NCBI GenBank assembly: GCA_031370785.1
Contig: JANMQY010000007.1
Span: forward strand, 1 to 44,719
Direction: 5' to 3'
DNA from: Candidatus Eiseniibacteriota bacterium
Lineage (GTDB): Bacteria; Eisenbacteria; RBG-16-71-46
Length of the DNA: 44,719 nt
How positions within the stretch are numbered: the stretch's first letter is position 1; each line of letters opens with the position of its first letter. Below are positions 31,401 through 37,400 of the stretch, one piece after another. The position numbers were made by a program.

Positions 31401-34400
31401 CGGTCGCGATGGCGCTCTCGAGCGTGAGCGTGATGACTTCGTCGCTCAGGCTGAGGGGATTCCGGTGAGCGGCGCGCCTCAGGGTTTCTTCGCGAGCGCC
31501 ACGCCGACGGTCCACAGGTAGCCGTCGGGGTCGCCGACCCACACCTCACGCCAGCCGTGCGGCTTGTCGGTCGGCGGCAGGAGCACCGGAGCGCCGTGCG
31601 CGTGGGCGCGCGTCTCGACCTGATCCGGATCGAGCCCGAACAGCCTCATCTCGGCCCCCACACCGCGCGGCCCGGCGCCCGCGAGCGCCGCGCTCCACGG
31701 ATGGTGCTCGTAGGTGTGATCGGTGTGCAGCATCATGCGCTGGCCGTGCAGCTTGAGCGCAGCAAAGTCGGCATCGGAATACTCGACGATCGCGAGCAGC
31801 ACGTCGCGATAGAACGCGACCGACTTCGGCATGTCGCGCACCAGCAGGTTCACCGAGAAGGTTGGGAGCCAGCGGCCGTACTCGTCGGCTGGCATCCACG
31901 GCTCGCCAGTGCGGTGCTTGGCCATCCCTACCCCAGCCCCCACTGCTCGAGCTCGTCCTCGTCCAGGCCGAGCAGGTGCCCGACCTCGTGCTGCACCGTG
32001 ATGCGGATCTCCTTCGCCAGCTCTTCGTGATCGCTGCACACCCGGAGCAGGTTGCGGCGGAACAGGTAGATCACGCCGGGCGCACCGGGCACATCGCCGG
32101 TGCTGCGCCCCATCAGGTGCCGGCCCACGAACAACCCGAGGATGTCGGGGGAGAGTGGCGGCTGCTCGGCGATCAGCACGTCGCGGCGCGGCAGCGGCTC
32201 GACCATCACTGGCAGGTCATCGAGATGGCTGCGGACCTTCTCCGGCAGCTCGCGCACGCACTCCTCGACGATCGAATCGAACTCCTCGTCGCTCACTTCG
32301 AGCGGCTCAGGGAAAGCCTCGTCATCGATCTCGTGCGCCATCTCGGAGTGCTCGCTGGCCTTCCCGGTGTCCCCGAGATGCTCGTAGATGCGCCCCAGCA
32401 GGTCGTGCGCCTCCCCCAGGTCCTCGTGAACGGCGAGTGCGCGCTCCGCGTCGTCGCGGGCGGCTTCGAGCTGTGCCAGCTCGTAGTGCGCGACCGCGCG
32501 CAGGTGGAAGAACAGCGCCGGGTCGGCCGAGCGCTCGGCGCCTTTGAGCACTTCGAGCGCGTGCTGGGCTTCACCCTCGTCGAGTGAGACGGCCGCATCC
32601 ACGATGCGCAGATCGGGATGGCCGGGGCGCTTGTTCTCGAGCGCGTTCAACTCCAGGCGGGCCCGTTCGAGCTGGCCCTCGTCGAGAAGGTCCCACACCC
32701 GATTCACCTGCTCCCACTCGACTTCGTTCAACAACTCGTACGCCATGCCTTGCCCTCCGGAATGTGGCCGGCAGGTTACCGCCCCGCGCCGGCCCGCACC
32801 AGCCGAGCGCGCCGGCCTCGGTGCGCGCGCGAGGCGGACCGGGCGCAGCCCAGGTGCTAGAGTTGAGCGCGGGGGTTCGAACGCTTTCGCTGTGAGGAGG
32901 CCGCATCCATGACGCAGACCCAGGCCGTGAAACATCTGCTCCGTGCCCATCGCAGGTCGCTGGCGCGTTCGCTCAAGCAGGCGTACCAGGAAGGCTTCGA
33001 AGCCGGGCTGCACCGCGCGCACGGCGCGGGACGGCGCGGGCGGACCATTCGCGCCGATGCAACCGTGGATGGGCTGATCCGGCTCATCCAGCGCCACTTC
33101 GGGCTCGATCGCTATGGCTTCGAAGTGCGGGTCGTGCACCAGGGTTCGGGCAGGCGCGTTCCCTCGCGCGACCTGCTTCGGAAGTACCGGATTCCGGACG
33201 CGTAAAGCCGCGGACCGCCCGGCTTGACGCTGGCGGTTTCTTCCCCGTAAAATCTGCACCCGCTACGACGACCGGGCCGAGTCGCAGGAAAACATCGGAG
33301 ACGTTTCTCATGAAGGTGCTGGCATCCCGTCTCGCGGTCGCAACGGCCGCAGCGCTTGCCGTGTGGGTGGTGCTCATCGGCGCCACCGTCCCCAGGCCCT
33401 CCCAGCTCGAACCCGACAAGCTGATCATCCTGTCCACGGTCGACGTGAAGGGCAAGGCCAGCCCCTGCGGCTGACACACGCCCAAAGGGGGCCTGGCCCG
33501 GCGGGCCAGTTTCGTGGACAGCATGAGGACGCAGTACAGCCAGATCCTGCTTCTGGATGATGGCGGATTCTTCCCCGAGGACGACGTTCACGAGCCGTTC
33601 GCAGGGTTCATGATGGACGCGATGACCCTGATCGGCACCGACGCGGTCGGCTGCGGAGATCGCGACCTGCGTTTCGGGATCTCGTACCTGCGTGCGCGCT
33701 CGGCACGCGCCAGGCTGCCGGTGCTCTCGGCAAACCTCGTCGACAAGGCGACCAGGCAGCCCGCGCTCAGCCCCTCGCTGATCAAGAAGGTGGGTACGGT
33801 CAAGGTCGGCATGTTCGGCTTGATCAGCGACAAGGCCGAGCTGGGCCCGTCGCGGGATTCGCTGCTGGTGCTCGATCCGACCGTCGTCGCCAAGCGCACC
33901 ATTGCCGACCTCAAGAAGCGCGGCGCCACCGTGATCGTGCTGCTCTCGCAACTCGGCAAGGTCGAGACCGAGGACCTGGCGAGTGCGGTGGATGGGCTCG
34001 ACGTGGTGATCGTCGGGCGCAACGTTCCGCTGGTGCAGAAGGGCCGCATGATCAAGGACGCGATCGCGGTCTACGGCGCCGACCAGGGCCAGTACTTCGG
34101 CCGCACTATCGTGACCCTGAATGCGGCACGCGTGGCGACCGCCAAGGAAAGCGACATGTTCCTGCTCACTCCAGAAGTGGGCGAGAAAGCCGAGGTCGCG
34201 GCGCTGGTCAAGGGGTTCGAGGACAAGTTCAACGAAGAGCAGAAGAAGCGCGAGAAGGAAGAACAGGTCAAGCACGCCCAGGCCACGAGCGGAAACGAGC
34301 CGGACCACTTCGTCGGCGGCGATGTCTGCGCGCGCTGCCATACCAGCGAGTACGCGCAGTGGCAGACCACCAAGCACGCGCTGGCGTGGAAGACCCTGGT

Positions 34401-37400
34401 GGATCAGCACAAGGACTCGACGCCCGAGTGCGTGGGTTGCCACGTCGTGGGCAACAGGCAGGCGGGTGGCTTCACCAACGGTACCGACACCCCGAAGCTG
34501 GTGAACGTGCAGTGCGAGAACTGCCACGGCATGGGCACCAATCACGAGGCGTTCGCGGCGAATCCTCCCAGGATCACCGAGAGCACCTGCATCCAGTGCC
34601 ACACCGCGACCACCAGCCCGACGTTCAGCTTCGCCATCTACGCGCCGCACGTGATGCACAAGTACGCGGGCGTGCCGCCTCCGATTCCCGCGCACGCGCC
34701 GACCATGGGCGGACACTGATCGGCGGCTTTGCGCTCGAGCAGATCGCGGGGCTCCTCGTTCGAGGGCCCCGCTCGCTTTTTGAGCCGGCCTCTAGCCCAC
34801 TCGCTTGACCCTCGCTGCGGGCCCCCGTAATGTCCGCGGCCGGCCCAAAGCACGCGGCCTCCCCCCGGGCTCAGGCCGGGAGCGCGGAGGCGCGCCGGCC
34901 GCCCACTTCCGGCCGGCCTGATTTCATTCATGAGGAGTGTTTCCCGGTGAGCTCGGTTCTCGATGGCGTGAAGTACTTCGAGTCGATCATCGATACCGTC
35001 GGGAATACGCCGCTGGTGCGCATCCGCGCGCTGGCGCGCGGCTCTCCCGCTCCGGTGCTGGCCAAGCTCGAGTACTTCAATCCCGGCGGTAGCGTCAAGG
35101 ATCGGATCGGACTCGCGATGGTCGAGACGGCCGAGCGCGAGGGAACGCTGCGCCCGGGCGGCACGATCGTCGAGTGCACCTCCGGCAACACCGGGGTCGG
35201 GCTGGCGATGGTCGCGGCGGTGCGGGGCTACCGCGCGGTGTTCTGCATGCCCGACAAGGTCTCGAGCGAAAAGGTGAACCTGCTCAAGGCCTACGGCGCC
35301 GAGGTGCTGCTCAGTCCGACCGCGGTCGAGCCCGACTCGCCCGAGTCGTACTACTCGGTGGCGAAGCGGGTCACGGCGGAGCGGCCCGGCGCGGTGCTGA
35401 TGAACCAGTATCACAATCCGTCGAATCCGCTCGCGCACTACCGGACGACCGGACCCGAGCTGTGGGAGCAGACCGCCGGGAAGATCACGCACTTCGTGAC
35501 CGGCATGGGCACCGGCGGCACCATTTCCGGCACCGGACGCTACCTCAAGGAGAAGAACGCAAAAGTGCAGGTGATCGGCGCGGATCCGGTCGGTTCGATC
35601 CTCAAGGCCTATCACGAGACCGGTCAGATCACCGGGGCCCACACCTACAAGATCGAGGGCGTGGGGGAGGACTTCATTCCCTCCGCGACCGACTTCAAGG
35701 TCATCGATCGGGTGATCGCGTGCAACGACCGCGACGGCCTGAACACCGCGCGACGCCTGGCGCGCGAGGACGCAATCTTCACCGGCGGCTCGGGCGGCAT
35801 GGCCGCGTGGGTCGCGCTCGAGGTGGCGAAGACGCTGACCCCGAAGGACCTGGTGGTGGTGCTGCTCCCCGACACCGGCGAGCGCTACCTGTCCAAGGTG
35901 CACAACGACGCGTGGATGCGTGACAACCATCTGCTCGACCCGGCGGTGACGCGCGTGCTCGAGGTGGTGGCGGGCAAGGGACGGGCGCTGCGCGGGCTGC
36001 TCAGGGTCGAGGCGCACGAGCCGCTGCGCCGCGCGCTGGCGCTGGTGCAGCAGCACGACGTCACGCAGATTCCGGTGTTCCGCGGGGAACAGGTGGTGGG
36101 CACGGTCTACGACAACGAGATCCTCAAGTGCGTGCTCGAGAACTCCTCGACGCTCGACAAGCCGGTCGAGACGCTGATGGGCGATCCGCTTCCGATCGTT
36201 GGCAGTGACGAGTCGGTGGACCACGTCACCCAGCTGCTCGCGTCGCGCAATCCCGCCGTGCTGGTGCGCGAGAACGGCAAGGTGACCGGGATCCTGACGC
36301 GCTTCGACATGCTGCAGTTCATCGCGGGAGGCGAGTGATGGGAGGGGAATCCGCACTCACCCCGAAGTCGGGATTCAGCACCAGGGCGATCCACGCCGGT
36401 CAGAATCCGGACCCGACGACCGGGTCGGTGACCGTGCCGATCTATCAGACCTCGACCTACGCGCAGGAGGCGCTCGGGGTCAACAAGGGCTTCGAGTACG
36501 CGCGCACGCACAACGCGACGCGCTTCGCGCTCGAGGGCAATCTCGCGGCGCTCGAGGGCGGCAAGCATGGCTTCTGCTTCGCCTCTGGGCTCGCGGCCAC
36601 CAACACCCTGCTTCAGACTCTGTCGTCGGGGGACCACGTGGTCGCGGGCGACAACCTGTACGGAGGCACCTACCGCCTGTTCGAAAAGGTGCTGCGCCGA
36701 TTCGGGCTCGAGTTCAGCTTCGTGCCCGCTCACGACCTCGGGGCGATCGAGAAGGCGCTGCGAGCGAACACGCGCATGCTGTTCGTGGAGTCGCCGACCA
36801 ACCCGATGATGCAGCTCACCGACATCGCGGCGGCGAGCAGGCTGGCGGGAGCGCGCGGGGCTCTGACGGTGGTGGACAACACGTTCATGACCCCCTACCT
36901 CCAGCGCCCGCTCGAGCTGGGCGCGGATGTGGTGCTTCATTCGGTGACCAAGTACCTGAACGGGCACAGCGACATGGTGGGCGGGGCGCTGATCACCTCG
37001 AACGAAAAGCTCGCGGAATCGCTGCGCTACCTGCAGAACGCGGCGGGCGCGGTGCCCGGCCCGATGGATTGCTGGCTCGCGCTGCGCGGCACAAAGACCC
37101 TCGCGGTGCGCATGCAGCGCCATGAAGACAACGCGCGTGCGCTGGCGAGCTGGCTCGAGGGCCGGCCGGGCATCACCCGCGTGTTCTATCCCGGTCTTGC
37201 GAAGCATCCCCAGCACGCGCTGGCGAAGAAACAGGCGTGCGGCTTCGGCGGGATCATCTCATTCGTCGCCGGCGATGGGTCGCTCGAGTCCGGCCGGAGG
37301 ATCTTCGACCGTTTCCGCCTGTTCACCCGCGCCGAGAGCCTGGGCGGGGTCGAGAGCCTGGTGTGCCACCCGGCGTCGATGACCCACGCTTCGGTGCCGC

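Follow-up and report, generated by a model that had tools for sequence, protein, structure and literature searches.

One gene with a selenocysteine codon

The window, a stretch of 44,719 nucleotides from a Candidatus Eiseniibacteriota bacterium, contains a frame that is interrupted by TGA and combines a nucleotidase-like with a cytochrome-like domain. Does it encode a single protein and, if so, which type of reaction might this protein catalyze? A genome-wide survey's note had proposed one 469-codon gene with an in-frame TGA, rather than two genes. Translation with table 11 split the frame into an ORF of 54 residues (33310-33474) and an ORF of 401 residues starting at 33514. When the TGA was read as selenocysteine (Sec, U), a single frame of 469 residues was obtained at 33310-34719 on the forward strand, which also bears all the features described below. 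It ends with a TGA stop (34717-34719), and U55 lies within the motif S-P-C-G-U-H.

We considered the possibility that the internal TGA is a true stop, either separating two genes or marking a recently broken one. The two table 11 ORFs would fit with this, as would the public gene calls of homologues, which begin past the TGA (about 390-400 residues). Yet codon 55 was TGA in the best loci of 30/30 Eisenbacteria genomes (CGUH in 29, CGUN in 1), which exceeds chance by a wide margin, Cys occupies the position in paralogues and in full-length database homologues, and the 54-residue piece would hold merely the leader and one strand. Furthermore, a SECIS-type hairpin (CTGGCCC, loop GGC, GGGCCAG; 33493-33509) starts 18 nt past the TGA. 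In an alignment of 29 loci, all 7 pairs were kept in 27/27 distinct rows, one of them being CG in 18 rows and GC in 9, and another CG in 25 and UG in 2; the compensatory change is synonymous. Slid positions, used as a control, paired in 14-52% of the cells, and the hairpin was absent from all five Cys paralogues. The Sec machinery is complete in the source genome, which carries selA, selB, selD and a tRNA-Sec with anticodon TCA. These findings confirmed that the in-frame TGA is a genuine Sec codon and that 33310-34719 is a single gene encoding a selenoprotein, leaving the true-stop explanation exceedingly improbable.

Upstream of the gene, a candidate sigma-70-like promoter (TTGACG, 18-nt spacer, TAAAAT; 33224-33253) was found as a consensus match only, with 10/12 matches; it was the one site in 33000-35000, as compared with 0.1 expected from shuffled sequences. 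A putative ribosome-binding site (GGAG, 33297-33300) lies 9 nt upstream of the ATG. Residues 1-25 (33310-33384) are hydrophobic and were modelled by AF2 as a helix comprising residues 2-25, which is predicted to act as a signal peptide or membrane anchor. Attachment of c-type haem likewise requires export, and we take the protein to be exported.

The nucleotidase-like domain and its Cys-Gly-Sec loop

The survey had assigned to the N-terminal part the fold shared by 5'-nucleotidases and SoxB. This was reproduced and improved upon with AF2 and an 85-row alignment (pLDDT 93.9, pTM 0.87), VIA-align returning CD73 (4h2f; Z 35.1, rmsd 2.1, 281 residues aligned), 2z1a (Z 35.0) and SoxB (2wdc; Z 32.8, rmsd 3.0, 283 aligned). 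Structure comparison and alignments place this metallophosphoesterase-fold domain at about residues 35-290 (33412-34179). It is joined to the C-terminal domain by a long helix (residues 294-325 in the AF2 secondary structure; 34189-34284), through which the alignments with 5'-nucleotidases continue. UshA, CD73 and 2z1a resemble the protein in its N-terminal fold as well as in this helix (Z 33-35, rmsd 2.0-2.7, about 280 residues aligned, 22-24% identity). In contrast, their dimetal ligands and catalytic His are replaced here: where UshA and 2z1a have metal-binding or catalytic residues, the aligned sequence shows K47, G86, D117-R118, Q214, R237 and V239. Among 40 close sequences, these residues were largely kept (K47 in 38/40, G86 in 40/40, Q214 in 35/40, R237 in 30/40). 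Distant family members retain D/N86, H214 and H237, and some branches may therefore still bind metal.

The Cys-Gly-Sec loop had been thought to lie where the first metal-binding D-x-H motif would be. The alignment instead puts D45-V46-K47 at that position and C53-G54-U55 (33466-33474, with the Sec codon at 33472-33474) 6-8 residues beyond it, in a loop that exceeds that of UshA by two residues. C53 was kept in 83/85 rows of the alignment and position 55 was Cys in 84/85, for sequences only 25-56% identical. The motif was CxU in 33 of 80 species-representative loci, CxC in 40 and unparsed in 7. Judging from these alignments, the domain is devoid of a dimetal site and bears an almost invariant Cys-Gly-Sec/Cys loop.

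Some source annotations (JGI names) designate homologues as 5'-nucleotidase or 2',3'-cyclic phosphodiesterase, and the fold match (Z 35) points in the same direction. A working enzyme of either kind is nevertheless contradicted by the replaced metal and catalytic positions, and we consider it highly improbable. The score with the UshA model NF007109 was 43.9 bits for a cut-off of 600, and Pfam (E ≤ 0.1) returned neither a Metallophos nor a 5'-nucleotidase C-terminal domain match, a haem module standing in place of this absent, nucleotide-binding C-terminal domain. Nucleotidase activity of the selenoprotein is, on this sequence evidence, very unlikely, in line with what the survey had claimed. 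SoxB, a periplasmic enzyme of the sulfur cycle whose substrate is bound to Cys, belongs to the same fold family, though the protein reached only 50.8 bits (E 8e-14, as previously obtained) with TIGR04486, the cut-off of which is 550. SoxB works as a hydrolase with two manganese ions and is not known to contain haem or Sec.

A tetrahaem module within a catalogued family

The four cytochrome c554-type haem sites noticed by the survey were recovered as CxxCH motifs in the translated sequence, at residues 340-344 (34327-34341), 374-378 (34429-34443), 402-406 (34513-34527) and 427-431 (34588-34602). They lie in a tetrahaem domain extending over about residues 330-452 (34297-34665; PF13435, 57.9 bits). 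When modelled alone (pLDDT 89.8), this domain matched best c554 itself (1bvb; Z 10.7, rmsd 3.5, 127/149 residues aligned). It is related to the four-haem module of Nitrosomonas europaea c554 (1bvb/1ft5; phmmer E 4.1e-10, profile E 3.4e-21) and to the c554-like part of OcwA (6i5b; profile E 1.2e-28). Unlike c554, which is a free carrier, the module makes up here the last third of a protein that resembles an enzyme, and NF043010 gave only 38.6 bits for a cut-off of 400. The four CxxCH motifs are invariant, whereas only three additional (distal) His are conserved, namely H356, H412 and H450. According to PMC6703420, it is haem 2 that serves as the active site in c554 and OcwA, and the distal ligand of this haem is not conserved.

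The survey had regarded the fusion as a special feature of this protein. Yet the C-terminal 190 residues alone scored 131 bits on positions 354-518 of the NF041198 model, indicating that the haem module belongs to the catalogued family, and PF13435 is also present in the listed full-length homologues. The N-terminal domain matched model positions 5-269, about 276-353 being unmatched, and the whole protein scored 279.5 bits, as before, barely above the cut-off of 275. The selenoprotein is thus an ordinary, if divergent, representative of the UshA-like (seleno)protein family NF041198. It shares with it the P-C-G-U motif and both domains, and its clade has its own active-site set (D45-V-K47, K49, H56, K59, G86, Q214, R237). 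The family is near-universal in Eisenbacteria (189/201 genomes).

As the survey had acknowledged, the family was already known: besides its NCBIfam entry, it appears as 'COG0737 UshA-like, CxU' in tables of selenoproteome surveys (PMC2398784, PMC9312934, PMC13188914). The passages devoted to it in these three papers do not mention haem, and a count of the word 'heme' in the 2026 review (PMC13188914) gave 0. The table of this review also lists, beside the UshA-like protein, ExtKL (NF040886), an octahaem selenoprotein of the tetrathionate reductase family (TIGR04315) and the CXXCH selenoprotein GSU2204, and the idea that a second kind of multihaem selenoenzyme had been found beside MccSep could not be maintained.

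Which substrate for the Cys-Sec pair?

We propose, with a probability of about one half, that the selenoprotein is a haem-coupled thiol/selenol-disulfide oxidoreductase. U55 would attack a substrate of the S-S or S-H type, and the C53/U55 pair would cycle between the selenolate/thiolate state and a selenenylsulfide in a two-electron step. Single electrons would be exchanged with haem 2 (C374xxCH378), which in c554-type proteins is the active site with open coordination, in a direction that is purely conjectural; the three remaining haems would connect it to cytochromes of the periplasm or the membrane. The substrates that we favor are cysteine pairs of thioredoxin-fold (DsbA-like) or exported proteins.

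The protein could also be a plain electron-transfer cytochrome, in which the nucleotidase-like domain serves as a scaffold or docking surface and Cys-x-Sec forms a structural disulfide. Cytochrome c554 is itself an electron carrier, and one fused homologue (P0186) lacks both Cys, having Y-G-Y instead of C-G-C. Yet a costly Sec codon and its hairpin are maintained in 30/30 genomes and the two motif positions in 83-84/85 rows, which argues for catalysis and makes a mere carrier quite improbable.

Another possibility is that of a periplasmic Sec-based peroxidase, U55 being oxidized by H2O2 or organic hydroperoxides, resolved by C53 and re-reduced from the cytochrome c pool via the four haems. Known selenoperoxidases do use a Sec that is resolved by a Cys close by, the gene just upstream codes for AhpC/TSA in 1/64 loci (L086), and the family is near-universal (189/201 genomes) in a phylum whose genomes come from soil and sediment. 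Yet no recurrent link to peroxide-stress genes was observed in the neighborhoods of the loci, and this explanation, which we deem improbable, would not account for the fusions with, and adjacency to, DsbA-like proteins described below.

The survey itself had favored an enzyme acting on small inorganic chalcogen compounds in the manner of MccSep. C53 (or U55) would then be the distal ligand of haem 2, U55 would attack polysulfide, thiosulfate/tetrathionate or selenite, and the haems would deliver or remove electrons. According to the passages on MccSep in PMC13510729, this multihaem polysulfide-reductase selenoenzyme (gsu2937-2936, extKL, NF040886) pairs a haem 2 that is ligated by His and Cys with a Sec that is indispensable; both polysulfide and selenite are reduced by the enzyme, which offers a precedent for a catalytic unit made of haem, Cys and Sec. 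That only three distal His are conserved while there are four haems, next to a conserved Cys and Sec, would be consistent with such an arrangement. The cationic old metal site of this clade (K47, K49, K59, R118, R237) would suit an anionic substrate, the N-terminal domain resembles the sulfur enzyme SoxB no less than nucleotidases, and the haem-domain profile reaches MccSep chains (E 1.4e-5).

Both proteins are periplasmic multihaem c-type cytochromes with one UGA-encoded Sec. In the same passages (PMC13510729), however, MccSep is a tetramer with five N-terminal haems, its Sec being located in an Ig-like domain at the C-terminus and its Cys far off in sequence, whereas here only G54 separates Cys from Sec, within the nucleotidase-like domain at the N-terminus. 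Homology is limited to the haem motifs, and NF040886 was absent from the NCBIfam matches at E ≤ 0.01. Moreover, the cationic residues are clade-specific rather than family-wide, and record titles place some carriers in lineages whose names do not point to sulfur metabolism (such as Blastocatellia, Planctomycetota and Motiliproteus). Genes of sulfur respiration (Sox, Psr, Dsr or others) did not recur beside the family gene, and a rhodanese gene was at most two genes away in only 2/64 loci. CBS and CGL genes adjoined it in 7 and 6 of 80 loci, respectively, but this looks like inherited gene order, since it is tied to an LptD/HU synteny in Eisenbacteria and their neighbors. We therefore view a chalcogen substrate as somewhat unlikely.

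The only recurrent genomic association found was with DsbA-like thiol-disulfide proteins, which may provide a functional lead for the oxidoreductase that we propose. DsbA, Thioredoxin_4 or GILT domains were present in 6/14 long homologues, and PF13435 was also found in 14/21 proteins sharing this DsbA/GILT-like domain. A gene for a DsbA-like protein with a CxxC motif and a hydrophobic leader at its N-terminus directly adjoined the family gene, on the same strand, in 6/64 more distant loci. The link is confined to some lineages, because no neighbor cluster occurred in more than 15 of 80 loci. The lineages concerned are Nitrospirota and MAGs labelled as Deltaproteobacteria, partly kin. In the source genome, no adjacent partner gene was present and tblastn did not detect a partner-type DsbA homologue; its only DsbA-like gene (C84, CPHC motif) has no obvious signal peptide.

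Neither DsbB nor VKOR was found in the source genome (100% complete). In Eisenbacteria genomes with a completeness of 90% or more, DsbB was found in 0/101 and VKOR in 14/101, and five genomes with DsbA-adjacent loci had DsbB in 1/5 and VKOR in 0/5. The family is, however, not simply complementary to DsbB, since 4/5 of the other carriers tested, all Gammaproteobacteria, also have it.

The likeness to DsbB and VKOR would be one of working only, a CxC-type pair through which the respiratory chain would receive electrons from the thiols of proteins. There is no relation in sequence or fold, those proteins being membrane quinone enzymes and this one a soluble or anchored haem protein. The relay from Mia40 (CPC motif) via Erv1 to cytochrome c follows a similar CxC-type route and may likewise be no more than a working likeness. 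If the proposed mechanism is correct, the selenoprotein would, by analogy, be a thiol-to-cytochrome oxidase, working like DsbB or VKOR.

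Reading frame and selenocysteine codon

Under genetic code table 11, the UshA-like gene at 33310-34719 (+) reads as two ORFs in the same frame, one of 54 residues (33310-33474) and one of 401 residues that starts at 33514. When the intervening TGA is read as selenocysteine, a single frame of 469 residues results, which closes at a second TGA (34717-34719). The selenocysteine codon (33472-33474) encodes U55 of the motif S51-P52-C53-G54-U55-H56, near the N-terminus, and four CxxCH motifs are present at residues 340-344, 374-378, 402-406 and 427-431. A candidate ribosome-binding sequence (GGAG) is found 9 nt 5' of the ATG and a sigma-70-like site (TTGACG-18-TAAAAT) at 33224-33253, one such site being present against 0.1 expected.

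The conservation of the TGA was assessed in 201 Eisenbacteria genomes with a match threshold of E<=1e-30. A family match was found in 189 of these, a tally that takes in one genome flagged as unpublished (G015) which underlies nothing else here, and in 115 of the 121 high-quality genomes. Each of the 30 best loci, drawn from 30 genomes, contained exactly one TGA within the match, and all 30 translated to C-G-U, followed by His in 29 cases and by Asn in one (CGUN in locus L027). Full-length homologues in the protein databases show SPCGCH, i.e. Cys at the position of Sec, and many database matches of about 390-400 residues are gene calls that start 3' of the TGA. Among 80 loci from species-representative genomes, 33 had CxU and 40 had CxC, while 7 could not be parsed. 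Many Eisenbacteria carry the Sec form in tandem with one or two Cys forms, for example at G095:C19:39061-41971, G048:C106:55183-58102, G198:C7:8135-11045 and G122:C419:7395-11219; the genome of the window has a single copy.

Single-sequence folding of the 75 nt past the TGA gave no significant result (z -0.89, 36 of 200 shuffles folding equally well), and we therefore turned to covariation over 29 loci, in an alignment (A1) of 84 nt around the TGA. This disclosed a 7-bp hairpin that begins 18 nt past the TGA, in which 33493-33499 pairs with 33503-33509 around a GGC loop. Pairing was complete in 100% of cells over 27 distinct rows. One pair changed in a compensatory manner (CG in 18 rows, GC in 9), and a second pair varied between CG (25 rows) and UG (2 rows). 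When the 3' partner was slid by 1-3 columns as a control, only 14-52% of cells were paired and there were no compensatory changes. The compensatory change lies at synonymous third positions (Leu CTG/CTC and Ala GCC/GCG). The hairpin was not formed in five Cys paralogues caught within the same loci. A search of 33250-34900 against Rfam at E<=1 returned no family, which says little, as to our knowledge Rfam holds no bacterial SECIS model.

The genome of the window, which is 100% complete with 0.91% contamination, encodes the machinery for selenocysteine: selB (348 bits), selA (542 bits), selD (355 bits) and, near selD, a tRNA-Sec (69 bits) with anticodon TCA. As judged from sequence, the TGA is a selenocysteine codon and the hairpin a candidate SelB-type signal. 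The selD gene lies outside the window, on contig C73 at 99658-100812 (loci L010 and L012), with the gene for tRNA-Sec some 140 nt away; it contains one in-frame TGA itself, and SelD of this genome is thus also a selenoprotein.

The two calls thus make up one true selenoprotein gene, wrongly split, whose product is a divergent member of the family NF041198 (UshA_like_PCGU). For annotation, they are to be merged into a single CDS in which codon 55 encodes Sec. Seen as a sequence feature, it is an ordinary gene, a correctly recognised selenoprotein gene of a kind that is usually mis-called. Two RNA-labelled sequencing runs of one study (X11 and X12) contained contigs of 21-53 kb that are about 93% identical over the entire stretch; because the contigs are that long, they are not evidence of transcription. 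Two bins stood out in a pair of independent runs of sediment DNA (X3 and X4), one with the TGA and hairpin (33470-33523) and one with the third CxxCH (34496-34549): by a crude measure, summed contig depth at >=90% likeness, they reached 100-186 units against 0-38 in most other bins. These two segments are therefore shared nearly letter for letter by many other organisms.

A nucleotidase-like fold joined to a tetrahaem module

An AF2 model built from an 85-row alignment (pLDDT 93.9, pTM 0.87) opens with a hydrophobic helix (residues 2-25), which is followed by an alpha/beta domain (about residues 35-290), a helix of 32 residues (294-325) and a small helical domain. The large domain superimposes on CD73 (4h2f; Z 35.1, rmsd 2.1, 281 residues aligned), on the 5'-nucleotidase of T. 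thermophilus (2z1a; Z 35.0) and on E. coli UshA (1ush; Z 33.4). SoxB, a thiosulfohydrolase, is also matched (2wdc; Z 32.8, rmsd 3.0, 283 residues), a likeness of fold that is common to all 5'-nucleotidase-type proteins. The SoxB model TIGR04486 gave E 8e-14, as in the genome-wide survey's note, and 50.8 bits, below its cut-off of 550 bits.

We mapped the catalytic site through phmmer alignments to UshA and 2z1a. Of the UshA residues that we take to be the dimetal ligands and the catalytic His, the first Asp alone survives: D41 corresponds to D45, while H43 is replaced by K47, D84 by G86, N116 by D117, H117 by R118, H217 by Q214, H252 by R237 and Q254 by V239. In the 40 closest sequences, D45 (40/40), K47 (38/40), G86 (40/40), Q214 (35/40) and R237 (30/40, with His in 8) are largely retained, and K49 (40/40) and K59 (39/40) are also fixed. 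The 45 distant members (alignment A4) have ligand-like residues at three of these positions, with D or N at 86 in 43, His at 214 in 27 and His at 237 in 30. The clade of the window's protein thus has Gly, Gln and Arg at the positions where distant members have D/N, His and His, as well as three extra Lys, and the active-site chemistry may differ between branches of the family. Searches at E<=0.1 found neither the Pfam domain Metallophos (PF00149) nor the 5'-nucleotidase C-terminal domain (PF02872), and the UshA model NF007109, at 43.9 bits, stayed far below its cut-off of 600. The survey's proposal that the protein is not a nucleotidase is borne out by these replacements and by the profile results. 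Its further proposal, that the protein is a periplasmic redox enzyme, is upheld as probable.

The survey had regarded the haem domain as a fusion particular to this gene; for NF041198 it had given the best-matching stretch alone (model positions 6-275 of 519). The whole protein scores 279.5 bits (E 4.9e-83; curated cut-off 275), in agreement with the survey, and the two halves match when scanned separately. The N-terminal 279 residues cover positions 5-269 (149 bits), and the C-terminal 190 residues, with all four CxxCH motifs inside, cover positions 354-518 (131.2 bits, E 4.1e-38). As both halves match, the catalogued family already comprises a nucleotidase-like domain and a tetrahaem module; PF13435, which scores 57.9 bits here (gathering threshold 20.8), is also present in full-length homologues among the matches listed. 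The fusion is thus shared with the family and is no peculiarity of this gene.

An exhaustive search of 1.84 billion representatives yielded 11,580 proteins with E<=1e-3, of which 593 reached E<=1e-30. Both domains were covered in most of the best 150 of the 11,580; a search for longer homologues gave 3 matches. The phyla represented among the 80 loci include Eisenbacteria, Krumholzibacteriota, Nitrospirota, Acidobacteriota, Planctomycetota, Myxococcota, Gammaproteobacteria and Latescibacterota. The interest accordingly lies in the family, which is very large, near-universal in Eisenbacteria and spread over many phyla, rather than in the locus. The family has been listed since at least 2008, when a table of an ocean survey gave it a row (COG0737, UshA-like, CxU, 76 Sec and 92 Cys sequences; PMC2398784). 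It has further rows in PMC9312934 and in a 2026 review (PMC13188914), which does not contain the word 'heme'. In the papers found, the family is confined to such rows of tables. Among searchable papers we found no text on its four haems or on the lost nucleotidase metal site, and no paper that joins metallophosphoesterase, tetraheme and selenocysteine.

Modelled alone from 86 sequences, the haem domain reached a pLDDT of 89.8. Its best match among 48,161 chains was cytochrome c554 (1bvb; Z 10.7, rmsd 3.5, 127 of 149 residues, 31% identity); the next chain had a Z of 5.8, and OcwA, NrfA and MccA followed at lower values. The domain's profile matched OcwA (E 1.2e-28) and c554 (E 3.4e-21), and the equivalog model of cytochrome c554 CycA (NF043010) gave 38.6 bits against a cut-off of 400. 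The profile also matched chain A of PDB 6r2q (333 residues, E 1.4e-9), which is labelled 'Cystathionine beta-synthase'; this looks like a naming slip and not a real relation.

Conservation was examined over the whole family in 85 rows with 25-56% identity to the window's protein. C53 was kept in 83 and position 55 was C in 84; a few Gly, N142, W351, H356, A359 and the four CxxCH motifs were also conserved, as were H412 (83/85) and H450 (81/85). The conserved additional His are thus three (H356, H412 and H450) for four haems, and one haem seems, as far as the alignment tells, to have no distal ligand from a protein His. The second motif, C374xxCH378, aligns with the second motif of c554, and in c554-type modules haem 2 is the active site, according to PMC6703420. 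These two points, the number of conserved His and the role of haem 2, lend indirect support to a possible likeness in working with enzymes of the TsdA, SoxAX and MccSep type, in which a Cys or Sec is a ligand of the active-site haem or lies close to its iron.

MccSep offers a precedent, and the chief alternative to the reading favoured below is that of an MccSep-like enzyme acting on small chalcogen compounds. PMC13510729 describes MccSep (gsu2937-2936, extKL) as reducing polysulfide and selenite at an active site in which Cys239 is a ligand of haem 2 and Sec325 lies 3.6 Å from the sulfur of this Cys. The architecture differs: MccSep has five haems followed by an Ig-like domain that bears Sec, whereas the present protein has its Sec in the N-terminal part and four C-terminal haems. 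The sole link between the two is a profile touch at the level of haem motifs (E 1.4e-5), and the MccSep/ExtKL model NF040886 was absent among NCBIfam matches at E<=0.01. We regard such a function as possible but rather unlikely. Nor would the protein be, as the survey had suggested, a second kind of multihaem selenoenzyme, since the table in PMC13188914 already lists ExtKL/MccSep, octahaem Otr-family and GSU2204 CXXCH selenoproteins.

Fusion partners and gene neighbours

We surveyed 14 long homologues (553-1207 residues) for additional domains. DsbA, Thioredoxin_4 or GILT domains were found in six (P0144, P0152, P0201, P0270, P0186 and P0217) and DUF1573 or Ig-like domains in another six (P0146, P0221, P0253, P0262, P0244 and P0194); one of the remaining two had Big_5/fn3 and the other nothing further. 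PF13435 was also present in 14 of the 21 proteins that have the DsbA/GILT-like domain of P0217.

Clustering of the ORFs around the 80 loci revealed no partner in more than 15 of them. The commonest clusters were antisense-ORF artefacts of the family gene itself, followed by LptD (13 loci), FolC (13), HU (11), a secretion ATPase (11), cystathionine beta-synthase (CBS, 7) and CGL (6). These six genes occur solely in Eisenbacteria and lineages close to them, which indicates an inherited gene order. In the window, the order between 22001 and 37513 is AccD, LptD (23868-27794), a copper-type P-type ATPase (29141-31468), a glyoxalase-like gene (31479-32039, minus strand), a zincin-like peptidase (31928-33259, minus strand), the selenoprotein gene, cystathionine beta-synthase (34830-36338) and a Cys/Met PLP enzyme (36335-37513), the last two overlapping by 4 nt. 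The order LptD, HU, family gene and CBS-CGL recurs in loci of Eisenbacteria and Krumholzibacteriota. A tie to sulfur metabolism through the adjacent CBS and CGL was considered but discarded, because the hosts are always Eisenbacteria, Krumholzibacteriota or other relatives that share LptD and HU upstream. PstB-like ABC ATPases (cluster 16, 7 loci) were also set aside, both their distance and their strand being variable. Elsewhere in the window, a response-regulator receiver is fused with a PglZ domain (18744-20345) and a TsaB-like (TsaD-family) domain with a GNAT acetyltransferase (20751-22025).

Pfam domains were assigned to up to two neighbours per side of the 64 more distant loci (223 ORFs, long neighbours being cut to 700 residues); clustering alone covered the farther neighbours of these loci and every neighbour of the 15 closest ones (L045-L059). 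A DsbA-like gene directly adjoined the family gene on the same strand in 6 of the 64 loci. It lay downstream, 16-28 nt from the end of the match, in five (L081, L085, L091, L093 and L094) and upstream in one (L107), and all six products begin with a hydrophobic leader and contain a CxxC motif. A rough estimate puts the number of DsbA neighbours expected by chance in 64 loci well below one, although no more than two or three lineages account for the six. DUF1573 genes were directly upstream in 3 of the 64 loci, all of Planctomycetota/Brocadiales (L105:1612-2631, L110:4162-5364 and L114:1058-2527).

A possible role in periplasmic thiol oxidation

The reading that we favour, with a probability of roughly one half, is that of a Cys-Sec oxidoreductase for thiols and disulfides which is coupled to the haems and centred on haem 2; as substrates we lean towards DsbA-like proteins or protein thiols.

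The known re-oxidants of DsbA are rare in the phylum: of the 101 Eisenbacteria genomes with a completeness of 90% or more, none gave a match to DsbB and 14 gave one to VKOR, mostly in families f13, f10 and f8. Neither was found in the 100% complete genome of the window. The five genomes with a downstream DsbA-like gene, for which completeness figures are not at hand, had DsbB in one case and VKOR in none. Strict complementarity with DsbB failed, as four of the five other carriers tested, all Gammaproteobacteria, possess DsbB, and this counts against an oxidase of DsbA. The same is true of the fused homologue P0186, which has Y-G-Y instead of C-G-C, and of the window's genome, in which a search for the partner-type DsbA gave a weak match to a gene on contig C84 and no homologue. 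This gene, the only DsbA-like one in the genome, encodes a CPHC motif and a product with no evident signal peptide.

A broader proposal, which we put forward tentatively and consider improbable, is that the UshA-like CxC/CxU tetrahaem family constitutes a third, haem-based route of periplasmic disulfide formation after DsbB and VKOR, and is the main oxidant in Eisenbacteria. The Cys-Gly-Sec pair would then take two electrons from DsbA-like proteins, or straight from exported proteins, and these would be relayed via haem 2 and the other three haems into the cytochrome c pool. We found no paper that joins DsbB, VKOR, multiheme and DsbA. If true, such a route would parallel, in bacteria, the relay from Mia40/Erv1 to cytochrome c in mitochondria. 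Because fusion with, and adjacency to, DsbA-like proteins recur and one haem seemingly has no protein-His distal ligand, the hypothesis is a concrete and cheap one, and it bears on how thiols may be oxidized in the periplasm of bacteria that have neither DsbB nor VKOR.
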